Shown one piece after another: positions 18,851 through 56,123 of a DNA stretch of 64,000 nt. Below the pieces are notes generated by a model that was not told where the DNA came from, searched no databases, and worked only from the letters and a program-made list of their open reading frames with translations. The stretch is from NCBI GenBank assembly GCA_965153355.1, contig OZ231126.1, positions 30,380,001 to 30,444,000 of the forward strand, in the 5' to 3' direction. Every line of letters starts with the position of its first letter. Positions within the stretch are counted from its first letter, which is position 1. A program made the position numbers and the translations under genes. The stretch comes from Flaccisagitta enflata (Eukaryota).

Positions 18851-19100
18851 TGCACGACGCCCTTTTCAGGAGGTGGAGAGTACAAGTGTTTGGAGATAAC
18901 GACAGTCTGATATTCACAACTGAATTAACCAATTAGTAGTCGCTTGCGGGTGGGCAAGGGCAGTGAAGAGGTTGGGCAGGGGCCTCAATATGACTGGACG
19001 GGGATCGTAATGAAGATGGAAAATGGCAAAAATACTCGGAAATCACCAACTTTAGTCACCATTTAAAATACAATTCATAAACAAAGATTTGAATTCATAC

Positions 19101-21516
<2,416 letters not shown>

Positions 21517-22317
21517 TTCCACTTCATTTCCGGTTTCAATAAATGTCCAAATTTACGTCATTTTGGGTTCATTTTCAATTTTGTTTCATTCCCATATTCA
21601 CTGCCTCATTTTTATGTCTTTTTTTCGGGTTTGCTTCATTTTTTTTATTTCAATTTACTTTCTTCTTTTTACTTCAGTCCGGTTTTGTTTCATTTCCAGA
21701 TTTCCTTCATTTTCTGTTTTTTTTTTTCTTTCCGATTCATTTTCAGTTTTCCTTCATTTTCGGTTTTGTATCATCTCCGACTTCAATTTGTTCTCGATTT
21801 TGCCATTTTGATTTGAAATACTCTCATCATCGATAAAGTTTTCGAATTTGATCTCATTTGTTCACAAATCCACACGACGTATTCCAAGACAGTTCATGAT
21901 AATGTACCGACGATTCAACACGACAACCGACATTTTGATCAATTTTCAACATTTTTTGCGCAGTTTTCAGTTGGTAAACAAACCTGCAATAAATCTGCGG
22001 TAAAAACTTTGTTTGCTGATATTAAAAACAAATTGATTATACATATATAGATCAACACTGGTTTTGATAACTAACATTGGTTTGTCAAAATACTGTCTGT
22101 CTCCAATCCATCTTTAGTTATGGATGATTTTTTATGTCTATGATTCTTCTTCCCCCCCCCCCCAAAAAAAAATCTAAAAATAATGTAGAAACCGCGCGAG
22201 TAGAAATGAGGCGTTCGGCGGTCGTTGCCCTTTTTGTTTTCCCTCTGCCGTATTTTATTAGTGTTGCGCAGACACTTGATCAATGTTGCCCGTACGCGCA
22301 TGCTATGTTGTCTGGAC

Positions 22318-42008: not shown

Positions 42009-43115
42009 TTTTTGGGCAGCGGCCCCAAAGGGCCGATGTCCTGTAGGACACAGGGGTGAATTTTCTTATGTCTGTCCGTCCGTCCGTACGTATGTACGTC
42101 CCCCCTTGAACCTTCTCAATTCTCAAATTTCCATTGAATAACATGGGAAAATGACAAAATGCAAACTTCCCATTGAATAACATGGGAAAATGACAACTTG
42201 CAGACATCCCATTGAATAACATGGAAAATTTACAAACAATAGAAAAATGCACACTTTCTATCGAATAACATAGAAAATTTAAAAAATTTAAAAAAAAATG
42301 CCCTGCTCTCACTCCACCTCTTCAGTTGATCACTCCAAGCAGGGCATCCACAGACCACCAAATCCCACCCTGATGGGAAATAAGCCCCTAACGACACTTT
42401 ATCCTGCTCAAGCCACCTACACAGACCACCAAATCCTCCTAAGTGTTTGTGTGCCTCCTTCCCCTCCCACCTCCAATTTCAGTTTTTTTTTTGTTCATTT
42501 CCATAAAAGAATTCTATTTCTTCTCTTTATGGCAAAAAGAATGACAAAATCATAATCAAAAGAATTACATGGGTTGTCAAAAAAAATATTTGCTAAAGTT
42601 ACAATCGTGGAAAAGCTTACTTTTGTTTTCCTTAGTAATGCAGGCAGATCTGGTATCCTTTTTTTTGAAAACAGTTCAAACTGCCTTATGCAAATTTCTT
42701 TGCATAGGACTAGAAACACTAAACAAGTGATGCGGGGTTACAATATTGTGGGGGATGGGTGGGTAGGGGCAGCCAGCCACCATCCAAACTCAAGGACAAC
42801 CTTAGAAATGCTTGATAACCTAAGCTGGCCCGAGCGTGAAACCGGAAGTTTGTTCCGGTTGCGGAAAAAGGGCAGGGTCGCTCTAAAACGACAATCGGCT
42901 GCTTGGCCGTGACGGTAACGGTATTGAGAAGAAAAATAAGGAAGAAGAAGAAGAAAAAGAAAAAGAAGAAAAAAAAGAAGAAAAGAAAAAAAAAAAACGA
43001 TGAAAAGAAAAAAAGAAGAAAAGAAGCAAAGGAAAAATGAAGAAAAAATGAAGAAAAAAAGAAATAAAAAGAAGAAATAAAAGAAATAAAAGAGGGAAAA
43101 GAAGTAAAATGCGCT

Positions 43116-43173
<58 letters not shown>

Positions 43174-44556
43174 GCCCCTGCTTATATCTCCTTGTCTGTC
43201 TGTCCATCAGTCTGACAAGTGATATGTCCTCCTTCAAAATGTGAGGTTGTCTAGCGTATTTTTGAAGTTGTAATCACAGATGAGTAAATACAGATACTTA
43301 TGATAATTAGGACCCATCCCATACCGTACCGTCCCCGACACGATTGCAATGAATTGCATCATTACGCCAAGTGGCGGAAAATGGCGTTGTTGCAACGTCC
43401 ACGGGATAGAGGTTTACCGCAGTGTCACGCCCGGCCCAGAACCTAAGCAAAACATTAAAACTACTTTAGTACCTACTTACTTCAAGGCAACTCAGCCAAT
43501 GCAAAAACCATTGGAACATTTTTAGAAAAACTATAGGAATACTATAGGGCAAGTTGCACGACAACAGAACAACTCTTGGACAACTTGAGGATAACTTTAA
43601 GACAATTCTTGGACAAATCTAGGACAACCCCAGAACTAATAAGGCTACCTCTAGGACAACTGAAAAAAAACTTGAGGACAATTCTGACAACTTTAGGACG
43701 ACTTCTTGGACATTCCTAAGACAACTAGGACAACTCTAGGATAACTAAAACAACTCTAGTACAACTCTGAGAGAGCTATAGAACAACTTTTGGACAACTT
43801 TTGGACAACTTTAGGACACTTTTAAAACAACTTGAGGACAACTCTAGGACAAATCTAGGACATTTCTAGGACATCACAAGGACAATATAAGGACTCCTCA
43901 TTGGCAACTTTAAGACAAGTCTAAAACAAGTACTGTAGGATAACTTGATTAACCCAAGGAAATTCCAGGAAAACCCAAAGCTAATTTCCATATGAGTGAT
44001 CCTTCCATAATTCAGGCTAAAAAGGATGCGAAATTCCTCCCTAATCGCCATGAGCTTTGAAGAGACGCGCTCTTATTTCATTAAGCTCACCCAATAACAT
44101 CAGTTTATGCTTGGCAAAAAAATACTTGATGAAAGAGAGAAAATAACAAATATCTCTTAGGCTAATTTGTATGTTTGGGTAAAAAGAAATCAAGCTCGTT
44201 CTCAGCTTAAACTCAAAAGCGCAATTGCGCGCATTAGATCTAGCTCCGCATTCCGACTACGGAGGACTAGGAGCTACCGCCAATGCGCAAAACGTGCAAC
44301 TCTAGAAAACCGGTGAACTTTTGTGAATCTCTATATTTTCTATGTATTTTACATAATGTTTTTATCATTATTTATGTACTAAACACAATTTCGAAATGAT
44401 TTTTTTTGCAGATATGAACCAAACAGGGTTAGTAGAAGTGGAAAACAGCACTAATGTAGTAGCTTTTAAATAGTCGTGTCCATTACTTATTTCCCATCAT
44501 GGCGCTCTGTGGCATCGGGTACCGCTGACCATGTGCAATCCTTGGATGACTTGTTG
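42009..44556 (+). mobile_element. HINE subfamily A, split by a RAG/Transib-like insertion
   Basis: 5' GGGCAGCGGCCCCAAAGGGCCGATGTCCTGTAGG and 3' ..CACTCCAAGCAGGGCATC | GGGTACCGCTGACCATGTG..GATGACTTGTT match the uninterrupted copy at 55204-55882 (minus strand). Internal CCATTGAATAACAT repeats at 42131-42270. Confidence 0.75.
42349..44511. mobile_element. RAG/Transib-like non-autonomous transposon with asymmetric RSS-like termini
   Basis: Left CACAGAC-15nt-TGATGGGAAATAAG; right (reverse complement) CACAGAG-5nt-TGATGGGAAATAAG; 5-bp TSD GCATC at 42344-42348 and 44512-44516. Contains a GGACAACT minisatellite (43560-43950). No transposase ORF. Confidence 0.8.
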
Positions 44557-44702
44557 ATTTCTTTCCCCCCTCTCCTGCCTTTGATTTCTTTCCCCGCGAC
44601 GGATTGCAAAATCTATGATTTTCATCCCCATAAACCAATAGGGTACTGTTTTCAAATTCGGTGATGTCTTTTGTTTTACTGACTTTCTAAGCAAATTTTC
44701 AT

Positions 44703-44790
44703 TTAGGCTTAGGGGTAGGGTTAGGGTAAAGGTTGGGGTTGGGGGTGGTTTTAGGGTTAGGGTTAGGGTCAGGGCTAGCGTTAGGGCTAT
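44703..44790 (+). repeat. Degenerate TTAGGG-like repeat
   Basis: TTAGGGGTAGGGTTAGGG...TTAGGGTTAGGGTTAGGGTCAGGG. Confidence 0.75.
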
Positions 44791-46223: not shown

Positions 46224-49200
46224 ACAACAAGGCCGGATACACAGCTACCGAAGTGGCGTGAGGGTGGGCAGCACCGTGCATCAAAATCACCAACGAACCA
46301 CCCAACCCACCTATAACACCTTCACCGTGCATCAAAATCACCAACGACCAGGAAGTAAACCAACCAACCACCCAACCCACCCATAACACCATCATTGTGC
46401 ATCAAAATCACCAACGACCAGGAAGTAAACCGACCAACCACCCAACCCACCTATAACACCATCACTGTGCATCAAAATCACCAACAACCAGGAAGTAAAC
46501 CAACCACCCACCCAACCCACCCATAAAACCATAACCGTGCATCAAAATCACCAACGACCAGGAAGTAAACCAACCAACCATCAAACCCATCCATAACACC
46601 ATCACCTTGCATCAAAATCACCAATGACCAGGAAGTAAACCAACCAACCACCCAACCCACCCATAACACCATCACTGTGCATCTAATAACCAATGACCAG
46701 GAAGTAAACCAACCAACCACCCAACTCACCCATAACACCATCACCGTGCATCAAAATCACCAACGACCAGGAAGTAAACCAACCAACCACCCAACCCACC
46801 CATAACACTATCACCGTGCATCAAAATCACCAACGACCAGGAAGTAAACCAACCAACCACCCAACCCACCCATAGCACATTCACCGTGCATCAAAATCAC
46901 CAACGACCAGGAAGTAAACCAACCAACCACCCAACCCACCCATAATACCATCACCGTGCATCAAAATCACCAATGACCAGGAAGTAAACCAACCAACCAC
47001 CCAACCCACCCATAGCACCATCACCTTGCATCAAAATCACCAACGACCAGGAAGTAAACCAACCAACCACCCAACACACCCATAACACTATCACCGTGCA
47101 TCAAAATCACTAACGACAAGGAAGTAAACCAACCAACCACCCAACCCACCGATAACACCATCACCGTGCATCAAAATCACCAACAACCAGAAAGTAAACC
47201 AACCAACCAACCAACCAACCAACCCACCCATAAAACCATCACCATGCATCAAAATCACCAACAACCAGGAAGTAAACCAACCAACCACCCAACCCACCCA
47301 AAGCACCATCACCGTGCATCAAAATCACCAACGACCAGGAAGTAAACCAACCAACCACCCAACCCACCCATAACACCATCACCGTGCATCAAAATCACCA
47401 ATGACCAGAAAGTAAACCAACCAACCACCCAACCCACCCATAACCCCATCACCGTGCATCAAAATCACCAACGACCAGGAAGTAAACCAACCAACCATCC
47501 AACTAATCCATAACACCATCACCTTGCATCAAATTCACTAACGACCAGGAAGTAAACAAACCAACCACCCAACCCACCCATAACACCATCACTGTGCATC
47601 TAATCACCAATGACCAGGAAGTAAACCAACCAACCACCCAACCAACCACCCAACCCACCCATAACACTATCACCGTGCATCAAAATCACCAACGACCAGG
47701 AAGTAAACCAACCAACCACCCAACCCACCCATAACACCATCACCGTGCATCAAATTCACCAACGACCAGGAAGTAAACCAACCAACCAACCAACCCACCC
47801 ATAAAACCATCACTGTGAATCAAAATCACCAACAACCAGGAAGTAAACCAACCAACCACCCAACCCACCCATAGCACCATCACCGTGCGTCAAAATCATT
47901 AACGACGAGGAAGTGAACCAACTAACCACCCAACCCACCCATAACACCATCACTGTGCATCAAAATCACCAAGGACCAGGAAATAAACCAACCAACCACC
48001 AAACCCACCCATAACACCATCACCGTGCATCAAAATCACCAACGACCAGGAAGTAAACCAACCAACCAACCCACCCATAACACTATCACCGTGCATCAAA
48101 ATCACCAACGGCCAGAAAGTAAACCAACCAACCACCCAACCCACCCTTAGCACCATCACCGTGCATCAAAATCACCAACGACCAGGAAGTAAACCAACCA
48201 ACCACCCAACCCACCCATAACACCATCACCGTGCATCAAAATTACCAATGACCAGGAATCAAACCAACCAGCCACCCAACCCACCCATAACACCATCACC
48301 GTGCATCAAAATCACCAACGACCAGGAAGTAAACCAACCAACCATCCAACCCATCCATAACACTATCACCTTGCATCAAAATCACCAACGACCAGGAAGT
48401 AAACAAACCAACCACCCAACCCACCCATAACACCATCACCGTCCATCTAATCACCATTGACCAGGAAGTAAACCAACCAACCACCCAACTCACCCATGAC
48501 ACCATCACCGTGCATCAAAATCACCAACGACCAGGAAGTAAACCAACCAACCACCCAACCCACCCATAACACTATCACCGTGCATCAAAATCACCAACGA
48601 CCAGGAAGTAAACCAACCAACCACCCAACCCACCCATAACACCATCACCATGCATCAAAATCACCAACGACCAGAAAGTAAACCAACCAACCAACCCACC
48701 CATAACACCATCACTGTGCATCAAAATCACCAAGGACCAGGAAGTAAACCAACCAACCACCCAACCCACCCATAACACCATCACCGTGCATCAAAATCAC
48801 CAGCGACCAGGAAGTAAACCAACCAACCAACCTACCCATAACACCATCACCGTGCATCAAAATCACCAACGACCAGGAAGTAAACCAACCAACCACCCAT
48901 CCCACCCATAGCACCATCACCGTGCATCAAAATCACCAAGGACCAGGGAGTAAACCAACCAACCACCCAACCCACCCATAACACCATCACCGTGCATCAA
49001 AATCACCAACGACCAGAAAGTAAACCAACCAACCATCCAACCCACCCATAACACCATCACCGTGCATCAAAATCACCAACGACCAGGAAGTAAATCAACC
49101 AACCACCCAACCCCCCCATAGCACCATAACCCATAACCCATAACCCATTACCCATAACACCGGCAGGGGCAGTGATAAAAAAGGTTATCCCAAGCATTTT

Positions 49201-54972: not shown

Positions 54973-55203
54973 ATAAACAGAACCCCCCCTCATCTCTCGT
55001 TTTGATAGTTAGACTATATATATAGATCTACTTGAAGTGAATGAAGTGAGGAATGAGAATCTTTGGTCAGCGATACCGTTGCTCCGCCCTGTGAATGTGA
55101 GTTAGAAGAAGCAAGGCAGGCAAACTTGAAAAAGCTGGTTTGAGGCGTGAAAGGGGATTATTTTGGAGCTGATTAAAGGCATTGGAGGCATGATTTGAAG
55201 GCT

Positions 55204-55882
55204 AACTAGTCATCCAAGGATCGCACATGGTCAGCGGTACCCGATGCCCTGCTTGGAGTGATCAGGTGAAGTAGTGAAGTGAGAGCAGGGCAGCGGCCCC
55301 AAAGGGCCGATGTCCAGTAGGCCACAGGGGGGAATTTCCAGACGTCCTGAGGGGTAATGAATGAGGCCCAAGAGGTAATTGAAGCGGGATTTGAGGTCTG
55401 GGGGAAAGATTTAAGGCCTGAAGATTAGATTTGAGGCCTGGGGGCAGGCCTGAGGCCTGAGGGGCAGATTTGAGGCCTGGAACACAGATTTGAGGTCTGG
55501 AGAGCTGATTTGAGGCCTGGAACACAGATTTGAGGCCTGTAGAGCTGATTTGAGGCCTGGGGCAGATTTGAGGCCTGGAACACAGATTTGAGGCCTGGAG
55601 AGCTGATTTGAGGCCTTGAGAGCTGATTTGAGTCCTGAAGAGATGGTTTGAGGCCTGGAGAGCTGATTTGAGGCCTGGAGAGCTGATTTTAGGGCTTAGA
55701 GGGCCTAAATCAGGCCTGAGAGGATTTGAGGCCTCAACCGCCAACAAGGGGGGGGACGGACGGACAGACGGACGGACGGACGGAAGGACAGACGGAAGGA
55801 CAGACGGAAGGACGGACGGACGTCTGGAAATTCCCCCCTGTGTCCTACAGGACATCGGCCCTTTGGGGCCGCTGCCCAAAAA
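55204..55882 (-). mobile_element. Complete HINE subfamily A with a 20-bp minisatellite between long inverted repeats
   Basis: ~58-bp inverted repeat (55288-55346 and 55820-55877), (GACG)n, (AGGCCTGGAGAGCTGATTTG)n; 3' tail shared with 1-627 and 44517-44556. Confidence 0.75.
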
Positions 55883-56123
55883 CTGCTGATTAGATGCTAA
55901 GGCCCAGTGGCAAATGTAAGGTTTGAAAGGGCCCCTGAAGGGATAGGGGGGGGGAACTGTTGAACAAATGACAGTTCCTCTGTGTTCTACAGGACTACGC
56001 TCCCTCACAGACCGCTACCCCCCCCCCCCCCAAAAAAAAAGAATCAATGTAAAAGGTATTGACCTTTATTCTGCACAATCCCGATTAAGACAGTCACGTT
56101 CCTATGAAGTCTTTCAAAAACGT

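Follow-up and report, generated by a model that had tools for sequence, protein, structure and literature searches.

An insertion in a dispersed host repeat

The 64-kb stretch of DNA that was analysed (hereafter the window) contains a 2.2-kb insert without recognisable genes that sits in a dispersed host repeat. Read directly and re-derived by script, the insert spans positions 42349-44511 (2163 bp), opens with CACAGAC and closes, in reverse complement, with CACAGAG. The sequence GCATC flanks it on both sides, and another copy of the host repeat retains the site in uninterrupted form:

42344-42348, no strand: left target-site duplication (TSD), GCATC; a 6-nt repeat, GGCATC, begins at 42343
44512-44516, no strand: right TSD, GCATC
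55204-55292, minus strand: uninterrupted paralogous (empty) site in the other host-repeat copy, with a single GCATC at 55243-55247

The left flank (42299-42348) matches 55292-55243 on the opposite strand at 90% of positions and the right flank (44511-44555) matches 55248-55204, also on the opposite strand, at 95.6%. At this paralogous site both flanks abut and only one GCATC is present, which fixes the exact boundaries of the insert and of its TSD. A first-pass annotation of the same DNA had proposed an empty site at about 55235-55250 and a GC-rich 5-bp TSD. The single GCATC was indeed found at the proposed empty site, and GC content is 60% in the 35-bp target site but 40.6% in the window as a whole, a comparison that concerns one site only. 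The GCATC duplication is likewise present on both sides; note however that the direct repeat around the insert is 6 nt long (GGCATC at 42343 and 44511). A 6-bp TSD, with the element then ending in ...CTCTGT, is the alternative to the 5-bp reading, which we prefer because it yields symmetric CACAGA...TCTGTG tips.

Microhomology-mediated deletions are likewise flanked by short direct repeats and, with a single filled and a single clearly empty site available, the empty site might be explained by deletion between the GGCATC microhomologies, or the filled site by an unrelated 2.2-kb segmental insertion, with no transposon involved in either case. We regard such an origin as highly improbable, given that inverted repeats of 12 and 14 nt begin exactly at both boundaries, that the segment does not resemble the host repeat, and that the other copy of this repeat runs through the site without interruption.

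Coding capacity and interior of the element

The element is without recognisable coding capacity. Fourteen open reading frames (ORFs) of at least 50 aa overlap it, 10 of which were scanned against Pfam; nine of these remained without a family at E<=10 and the tenth matched only at 9.9 bits (E=1), a result in line with the earlier description of the element as non-autonomous. At the level of the window, no RAG1/Transib or other transposase domain was detected in the 132 ORFs scanned against Pfam (55 + 77, entropy- or hand-filtered subsets of 88 ORFs of at least 110 aa and 281 ORFs of at least 70 aa), which returned low-complexity or weak matches only. Rfam and tRNA scans of the window gave 0 and 0 matches, with no captured RNA gene. 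Repeats occupy part of the interior:

42825-43439, no strand: nested MITE-like insertion of 615 bp with ends CTGGCCCGAGCGTGA and TCACGCCCGGCCCAG
43569-43885, no strand: degenerate tandem array with an 11-bp unit (consensus ACAACTCTAGG), about 29 copies with 64% matches

The two ends of the nested MITE are complementary at 13/15 positions, and its TSD, the 8-bp sequence AACCTAAG (42817-42824 and 43440-43447), occurs nowhere else in the window. A polypurine tract and a (CT)27 run lie within these 615 bp. The MITE would have arrived later, inside the element, leaving about 1.54 kb as the element's own DNA. The 11-bp tandem array sits in the element body.

Terminal sequences and spacing

Both ends of the element share a terminal block and an internal 14-bp box, and part of the left end recurs a short distance inside:

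42349-42360, plus strand: left terminal block CACAGACCACCA, heptamer-like CACAGAC plus 5 nt
42361-42370, plus strand: 10 nt unique to the left end in the pairwise alignment of the ends, AATCCCACCC
42371-42384, plus strand: left 14-bp box TGATGGGAAATAAG, whose tail begins the nonamer-like AAATAAGCC
42420-42436, plus strand: exact copy of the element's first 17 nt, CACAGACCACCAAATCC, 71 bp inside the left tip
44484-44499, minus strand: right box (44486-44499) with the nonamer-like AAATAAGTA
44500-44511, minus strand: right terminal block CACAGAGCGCCA, with heptamer-like CACAGAG at 44505-44511

At the left end CACAGAC (42349-42355) is followed by 15 nt and then by the box, and at the right end, in reverse complement, CACAGAG is followed by 5 nt (CGCCA) and an identical box, so that the tips and the 15/5-nt placement of the box read as the first-pass annotation had described them. 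The left and right terminal blocks match at 10/12 positions, the right and left ends align with 24/26 identical nucleotides and one 10-nt gap, and the block common to both ends extends to 17 nt (CCMTGATGGGAAATAAG, a 94% inverted pair). The placement of the gap is ambiguous, since the extra 10 nt could equally be CACCAAATCC (42356-42365). Beyond the box the arms differ by further indels of 4, 1 and 5 nt, which makes the 10-nt gap one among several. As a separate observation, the nonamer-side block is unusually well conserved.

A search of the 64-kb window for the box with at most two mismatches gave two matches, both exact and both at the ends of the element, a count that is not significant alone because 22/100 shuffles also reached at least two matches. 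The expectation for an exact 14-mer in the window is about 0.0005, and both exact boxes are inverted and lie at most 36 nt from the insertion boundaries. The terminal 12-mer had four matches in the window, three of them within the element; the fourth, at 56006, is without a nearby box.

The "5/15" spacing of the ends depends on how the box is delimited. When the A-rich tail of the box is taken as a nonamer-like block, the ends read heptamer-22-AAATAAGCC and heptamer-12-AAATAAGTA: the former block, at 42378-42386, lies 22 nt past the left heptamer, the latter, on the minus strand at 44484-44492, lies 12 nt past the right heptamer, and both ends have AA at nonamer positions 5-6. This fit is supportive, not decisive, because the start of the nonamer was picked after viewing the sequence. 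The proposal of a "5/15 rule" as a new geometry was not supported, the same ends being readable as heptamer-22/12-nonamer-like, which is the published 12/23-like asymmetry. The companion remark, that the box differs from the canonical nonamer, proved only half right, in that the last 7 nt of the box plus two more nucleotides occupy the place of the nonamer, with A at positions 5-6. Heptamer positions 6-7 are AC on the left and AG on the right, not the TG of CACAGTG or CACAATG.

Alternatively, in a TIR transposon of the same kind, the length difference between the ends could have arisen by accident in this copy or lineage alone, without being a rule that the enzyme reads. Such an accident might have been an indel, or else repair or duplication associated with the 17-nt internal copy that starts at 42420. 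The left tip took part in a local duplication, since the opening 17 nt of the element (the heptamer and 10 nt more) have an exact second copy at 42420-42436; the search for this 17-mer in the window gave two matches, both exact, a number reached by 1/100 shuffles, and no box follows the internal copy. The recurrence of the heptamer and most of the extra segment 71 bp inside the tip hints that the long left end may have arisen from local duplication or repair. The small indels that separate the arms past the box, an element old enough to have taken a nested insertion, and the single copy examined are all compatible with an accident. A random indel, however, would rarely produce the 12/22 placement observed, in which the 10-nt gap puts the A-rich block at two distances that are each within one base of the documented 12/23 geometry, and both copies of the TSD are intact in an element whose arms are otherwise nearly identical. 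On balance we consider the accident rather unlikely.

Search for further copies

No second copy of the element was found within the 64-kb window. Exact-pattern scans for the end pattern gave 0 matches in metagenome contigs and 0 in viral contigs. The one match in prokaryotic genome contigs, to an unrelated sequence in a groundwater Bacteroidetes MAG, was rejected as chance-level, the number of chance matches expected for this pattern in 596 Gb of prokaryotic contigs being estimated at about 2-3.

The 17-mer was present at 114 loci in metagenome contigs, and their kinship to the element was rejected in favor of chance matching, as a blastn comparison of the element with all 114 yielded no match at E<=1e-3. 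Sixteen of the 114 loci are members of a single repeat family whose conserved sequence (...AAFDTTDHQILLS...) contains the 17-mer; we take this sequence to resemble a reverse-transcriptase motif. When compared with the window by blastn, these 16 loci gave two matches, each of 21 exact nucleotides at 42420-42440, and the window ORF that contains TDHQILLS had no Pfam family even at E<=10. Some part of the element region is present in 20 of 24 listed sequencing runs; the highest word shares among these listed runs were 0.41 and 0.38, several marine metagenomes had about 0.33, and none reached half. Our guess is that the part present in these runs is the nested MITE and the host repeat.

Proposed superfamily and mechanism

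Judged from the sequence of one copy, the length of the TSD, the CAC termini, the geometry of the ends and the GC-rich target point to a non-autonomous cut-and-paste DNA transposon of Transib/RAG-like type with short and long ends, a reading whose chances we put at about even. CAC at heptamer positions 1-3 is invariant in Transib/RAGL ends (excerpts of PMC1131882; PMC7204232), and these three positions together with nonamer positions 5-6 are the universally conserved ones in the excerpted text of Kapitonov & Jurka 2005 (PMC1131882). The same excerpts describe several Transib families whose 5' and 3' termini resemble RSS12 and RSS23, and present Transib as the only superfamily, as of 2005, with 5-bp TSDs, and as having GC-rich targets. 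The element has the 5-bp TSD of Transib/RAGL elements on the preferred reading (the repeat itself is 6 nt), CAC...GTG termini with CACAGAC on the left and CACAGAG on the right, an A-rich block with A at nonamer positions 5-6 at spacers of 22 and 12, within one base of 23 and 12, and a GC-rich target, the latter at a single site. What stands of the original Transib/RAG proposal is a gene-less, transposon-type insertion with a TSD and TIRs; its CAC...GTG tips and preferred 5-bp TSD, along with the GC-rich target, agree with a Transib/RAG-like element. The 5/15 rule attached to the proposal does not stand.

Another superfamily that makes 5- or 6-bp duplications could have produced the element, the RSS-like geometry then being coincidental. 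Candidates are Ginger2 (4-5 bp), a short-TSD hAT-like lineage, and 6-bp Polinton-, IS3EU- or Dada-like elements. The deviation of heptamer positions 6-7 from the Transib/RSS consensus and the scanned window ORFs, in which no transposase was seen, would agree with such an origin. Bipartite asymmetric ends and a GC-rich target, however, match Transib/RAGL, and the CA...TG ends of the element are the reverse of LTR-type and Ginger-type ends, both of which start with TG and finish with CA. The length of the TSD, ambiguous between 5 and 6, leaves room for Ginger2, with TSDs of 4 or 5 bp, and for Polinton, with 6 bp (both in the excerpted portion of PMC10045372), but the CAC...GTG tips carry C at position 3, which in hAT termini is always G according to the legend of Fig. 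S7 of Kapitonov & Jurka 2005 (part of PMC1131882). Overall, we judge an origin in another superfamily to be unlikely.

Membership in hAT proper, with its 8-bp TSD and G at position 3 (PMC1131882, in part), was rejected for an element with a TSD of 5 (or 6) bp and C at that position. An LTR retrotransposon or solo LTR, for which the excerpted PMC10045372 gives TSDs of 3-6 bp, was also rejected, the element starting with CA and ending with TG on either strand.

Under the Transib/RAG-like reading, insertion of the transposon into a GC-rich site of the dispersed host repeat would have generated the 5-bp GCATC duplication. Both ends would be bipartite, with a terminal CAC heptamer-like block (CACAGAS CRCCA) followed by a second block (TGATGGG AAATAAG); the A-rich tail of this second block would be separated from the heptamer by 12 nt at the short end and by 22 nt at the long one. 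If the enzyme works as RAG does, a trans-acting transposase encoded elsewhere would bring a short end together with a long one in one synaptic complex, cleave at the CAC tips and insert the element with a 5-bp stagger, and the asymmetry of the ends would then be functional. A more specific version, which we hold to be improbable, invokes an undescribed Transib/RAGL lineage whose transposase would read the heptamer and the AAATAAG block, would need one 12-type and one 22-type end, and would use the heptamer-adjacent CAAA as a TR2-like extra contact. This CAAA stretch is found in the long end only, plus one repeat inside, in the internal 17-nt copy. If it were such a contact, nonamer-type and TR2-type recognition would be split between the two ends.

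Comparison with known systems

The 12/23 rule of V(D)J recombination is presumed to descend from asymmetric transposon ends of short and long type, and each new lineage with asymmetric ends helps to date and place the origin of this feature. The asymmetric ends of Transib, RAGL-A and AanRAGL are already published, and the element is plausibly one more example of the known short/long layout, not a new rule. By itself it changes nothing, because asymmetric ends are already in print and it is a single gene-less copy; its value would rise only with the discovery, in the genome, of a family of copies that retain the 12/22 pairing and of a matching RAG1-like transposase.

RSS12/RSS23-like termini are found in Transib5 of Drosophila melanogaster and in Transib2, N1, N2 and N3 of Anopheles gambiae (excerpts of PMC1131882; Yakovenko et al. 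2021), and all Subgroup I Transibs are asymmetric according to the excerpted PMC9435367. Like these Transib families, in which non-autonomous copies exist, the element has CAC tips, a 5-bp TSD, a GC-rich target, and a heptamer-like and an A-rich block that lie about 12 nt apart in the short end and about 22-23 nt apart in the long one. Unlike in Transib, its heptamer ends in AC or AG and not in TG, and its nonamer-like block is AAATAAG and not AAAAAAATC. Furthermore, the 7-10 nt of "spacer" beside this block are identical at both ends, whereas RSS and Transib spacers are described as variable.

AanRAGL from Aureococcus anophagefferens has TIR elements of 13 and 10 bp that are 4 or 13 bp apart, and 5-bp TSDs (Tao et al. 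2022, excerpts of PMC9435367). The element shares with it bipartite TIRs in which a terminal CAC-block is paired with another conserved block, a short/long spacer, a 5-bp TSD and a marine host. The spacers of 4/13 bp in AanRAGL compare with 0/10 or 5/15 here, depending on the limits of the blocks; the blocks themselves (CACACCCAAACCT and CCTCAAYAYG in AanRAGL) differ, and AanRAGL is autonomous with RAG1L and RAG2L, whereas the element is without genes. PflRAGL-A from Ptychodera flava has a 10-bp spacer asymmetry (Martin et al. 2023, in the excerpted portions of PMC10462144 and PMC10629977), and resembles the element in its heptamer, AT-rich nonamer-like block, 10-bp asymmetry of TIR length and 5-bp TSDs. 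However, in PflRAGL-A a conserved A-rich TR2 follows right after the heptamer at both ends, whereas in the element a CAAA-containing stretch is confined to the long (left) end and the internal 17-nt copy.

As in the 12RSS and 23RSS of V(D)J recombination, the heptamer starts with CAC, the A-rich block has AA at positions 5-6, and the spacers differ by about one helical turn. When compared with the V(D)J consensus, the heptamers of the element match CACAGTG at 5/7 and 6/7 positions and its left end matches ACAAAAACC at 6/9. Unlike V(D)J RSSs, which flank gene segments, these ends belong to a mobile element with a TSD.

Structure of the element ends

The ends of the 2163-bp element (42349-44511) were read directly from the window, and the coordinates proposed for them in the first-pass annotation proved exact, as did the heptamer-like tips, the 15- and 5-nt spacings and the common box described there. 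The features are:

42349-42355, forward strand: heptamer-like CACAGAC of the left end, followed by 15 nt
42371-42384, forward strand: box TGATGGGAAATAAG of the left end
44505-44511, other strand: heptamer-like CACAGAG of the right end, followed by CGCCA
44486-44499, other strand: box TGATGGGAAATAAG of the right end

The 14-bp box occurs only twice in the window, even when up to 2 mismatches are allowed, and the block common to both ends is actually 17 nt long (inverted-repeat pair I6). When the first 60 nt were aligned pairwise to the reverse-complemented last 60 nt, three components emerged: a terminal 12-nt block with 10 matching positions (CACAGACCACCA versus CACAGAGCGCCA), a 10-nt stretch present in the left end only, and the box, matching at 14/14; the right and left ends therefore agree at 24 of 26 positions, given one 10-nt gap. 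Beyond the box, a weaker similarity interrupted by additional small indels extends to about position 50 of the ends.

The 5- and 15-nt spacings run from the heptamer to the start of the box. If the box's A-rich tail is taken as the end point, the left end reads CACAGAC, 22 nt and AAATAAGCC, and the right end CACAGAG, 12 nt and AAATAAGTA, so that each spacer departs by at most one base from the 12/23 geometry. Positions 5 and 6 are A in each nonamer-like block; Kapitonov & Jurka (PMC1131882) name CAC at heptamer positions 1-3 and nonamer positions 5-6 as universally conserved. The fit to the 12/23 layout supports putative RSS-like ends but is not a blind test, because the start of the 'nonamer' was picked after the sequence was seen.

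The 10-nt difference may also be an accident that reflects no rule. An exact second copy of the element's first 17 nt, which comprise the heptamer and 10 nt more, lies at 42420-42436 and lacks a following box; two matches of this word were reached in only 1 of 100 shuffles. This internal copy and the other indels between the ends favor an accidental origin, while a spacing of exactly 12/22 and the published asymmetric ends speak for a rule. On the sequence of one copy, the 12/22 asymmetry is a candidate rule.

Insertion and target site

The element interrupts a dispersed host repeat, called HINE in the first reading, that is present in at least three diverged copies:

42299-42348 and 44512-44585: the interrupted copy
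55172-55292: the copy holding the uninterrupted site
588-611: a more diverged copy that aligns to the right flank only, left out as empty-site evidence

The left flank (42299-42348) is 90% identical, and the right flank (44511-44555) 95.6% identical, to the opposite strand within 55292-55204. In this uninterrupted copy the flanks adjoin at a single GCATC (55243-55247), in line with the empty site that the first reading placed at about 55235-55250. Consequently, 2163 bp were inserted into one host-repeat copy and GCATC was duplicated on insertion. A microhomology deletion is a very improbable origin of the 'empty' paralogue, given that the inverted repeats of the element begin exactly at both boundaries.

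The direct repeat flanking the element is 6 nt long, though (GGCATC at 42343 and 44511), and the duplication may thus be 6 bp, with an element shorter by one base. We prefer the 5-bp TSD, since the tips are then symmetric (CACAGA...TCTGTG). The 35-bp target site has 60% GC versus 40.6% in the window, and the insertion lies directly after an 8-nt inverted pair of the host repeat (GCCCTGCT...AGCAGGGC).

LTR-type elements end in TG...CA, unlike the CA...TG of this element, and were rejected. The length of the TSD and a C in position 3 rule out a hAT origin, by a criterion taken from a passage of PMC1131882. The element may alternatively belong to a superfamily with 6-bp TSDs or to Ginger2, for which a passage of PMC10045372 gives TSDs of 4-5 bp.

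Internal organization and surroundings

Two features occupy the body of the element:

42825-43439, 615 bp: nested MITE-like element with inverted ends and an 8-bp TSD (42817-43447 with TSDs)
43569-43885: degenerate 11-bp tandem array

The nested element has a perfect TSD, AACCTAAG, a word absent elsewhere in the window, and 15-nt inverted ends (CTGGCCCGAGCGTGA and TCACGCCCGGCCCAG, 13/15 complementary); it holds a polypurine tract and a (CT)27 repeat, and resembles hAT-type elements in its 8-bp TSD and in G at terminal position 3. Without these 615 bp the outer element measures about 1.54 kb. Ten of its 14 ORFs of at least 50 aa were scanned against Pfam and gave no meaningful match (nine had no family at E<=10, one a meaningless 9.9-bit match).

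The window looks eukaryotic and very rich in repeats, with about 40.6% GC, roughly one microsatellite per kb and TTAGGG-like arrays, one of which, an interstitial degenerate array of 14 units (44703-44786, 73% matches), lies about 190 bp right of the element. A 2.8-kb satellite (46289-49131; 70-bp unit, about 40 copies, 90% matches) shows marked C/A strand bias. An 825-codon open frame (19075-21552, reverse strand) is built nearly throughout from runs of His, Asn, Ser and Pro and has low-complexity Pfam matches only (Atrophin-1 type); it could represent either a disordered protein's exon or a translated microsatellite.

Search for further copies and a partner enzyme

Scans of the 64 kb revealed no tRNA genes and no Rfam families. 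There was no convincing Pfam domain, and no partner enzyme was identified, among 132 window ORFs, a set that combined 55 ORFs chosen by hand from 88 of at least 110 aa with 77 drawn from the 109 that passed an entropy filter among 281 of at least 70 aa (leaving out those scanned before and one dropped ORF).

No second copy of the element occurs in the window. The terminal 12-mer, at up to one mismatch, has four matches there, three within the element and a fourth (56006) with no box nearby. Contig collections were searched for the end pattern, defined as CACAG, 2-20 nt and the 17-nt box. Metagenome and viral contigs had no matches; prokaryotic genome contigs had one, which lies in unrelated sequence of a Bacteroidetes MAG, against the 2-3 that we estimate by chance. 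The 17-mer by itself occurs at 114 metagenome loci, none of which matched the element by blastn at E<=1e-3. Sixteen of them (L004, L017, L020, L034, L054, L064, L065, L073, L077, L081, L082, L086, L087, L103, L111 and L112) form one repeat family with the 17-mer internal, in a conserved stretch translating to a AFDTTDHQILLS-like motif that we take to resemble retroelement reverse transcriptase; no Pfam family matched the ORF of the window that corresponds to it. Blastn of these loci against the window gave two exact 21-nt matches, and the family was set aside as unrelated, its 17-mer being taken as a chance match. Words sampled from the element stretch were found in public sequencing runs at a share of at most 0.41.

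Comparison with published asymmetric ends

Several papers describe comparable layouts. According to Kapitonov & Jurka 2005 (PMC1131882), Transib elements have TSDs of 5 bp and GC-rich targets, and in their 38-bp termini about 22-23 bp separate the CAC heptamer from an A-rich nonamer; the 5' and 3' termini of several families resemble RSS12 and RSS23. Yakovenko et al. 2021 name these families as Transib5 of Drosophila and Transib2, N1, N2 and N3 of Anopheles, and give 27/31 for ProtoRAG. TIRs are asymmetric in all Subgroup I Transibs, and in the marine alga Aureococcus, AanRAGL carries 5-bp TSDs and two conserved TIR elements 4 or 13 bp apart (Tao et al. 2022, PMC9435367). Furthermore, a 12/23-like length asymmetry is possible in both RAGL families (Martin et al. 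2023, PMC10462144), and both non-autonomous RAGL elements and TSDs of invariably 5 bp are reported from protostomes (Martin et al. 2020, PMC7204232). The end layout has therefore already been published, and the putative '5/15 rule', put forward as new, restates a known geometry.

The most probable reading, to which we give about an even chance, is a non-autonomous element of Transib/RAGL type whose ends show the 12/22-type asymmetry and of which one copy is known. This upholds part of the first-pass interpretation, a transposon insertion with a TSD, and drops the novelty of the geometry. As judged from text descriptions, the heptamers end in AC and AG, whereas published Transib/RAGL examples end in TG; the two ends share an identical stretch of 7-10 nt beside the nonamer-like block, a region described as variable in published examples; and a CAAA-containing stretch follows the heptamer in the long end only, unlike the published descriptions. 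The element would add one plausible case to a published type of asymmetric-ended transposon.
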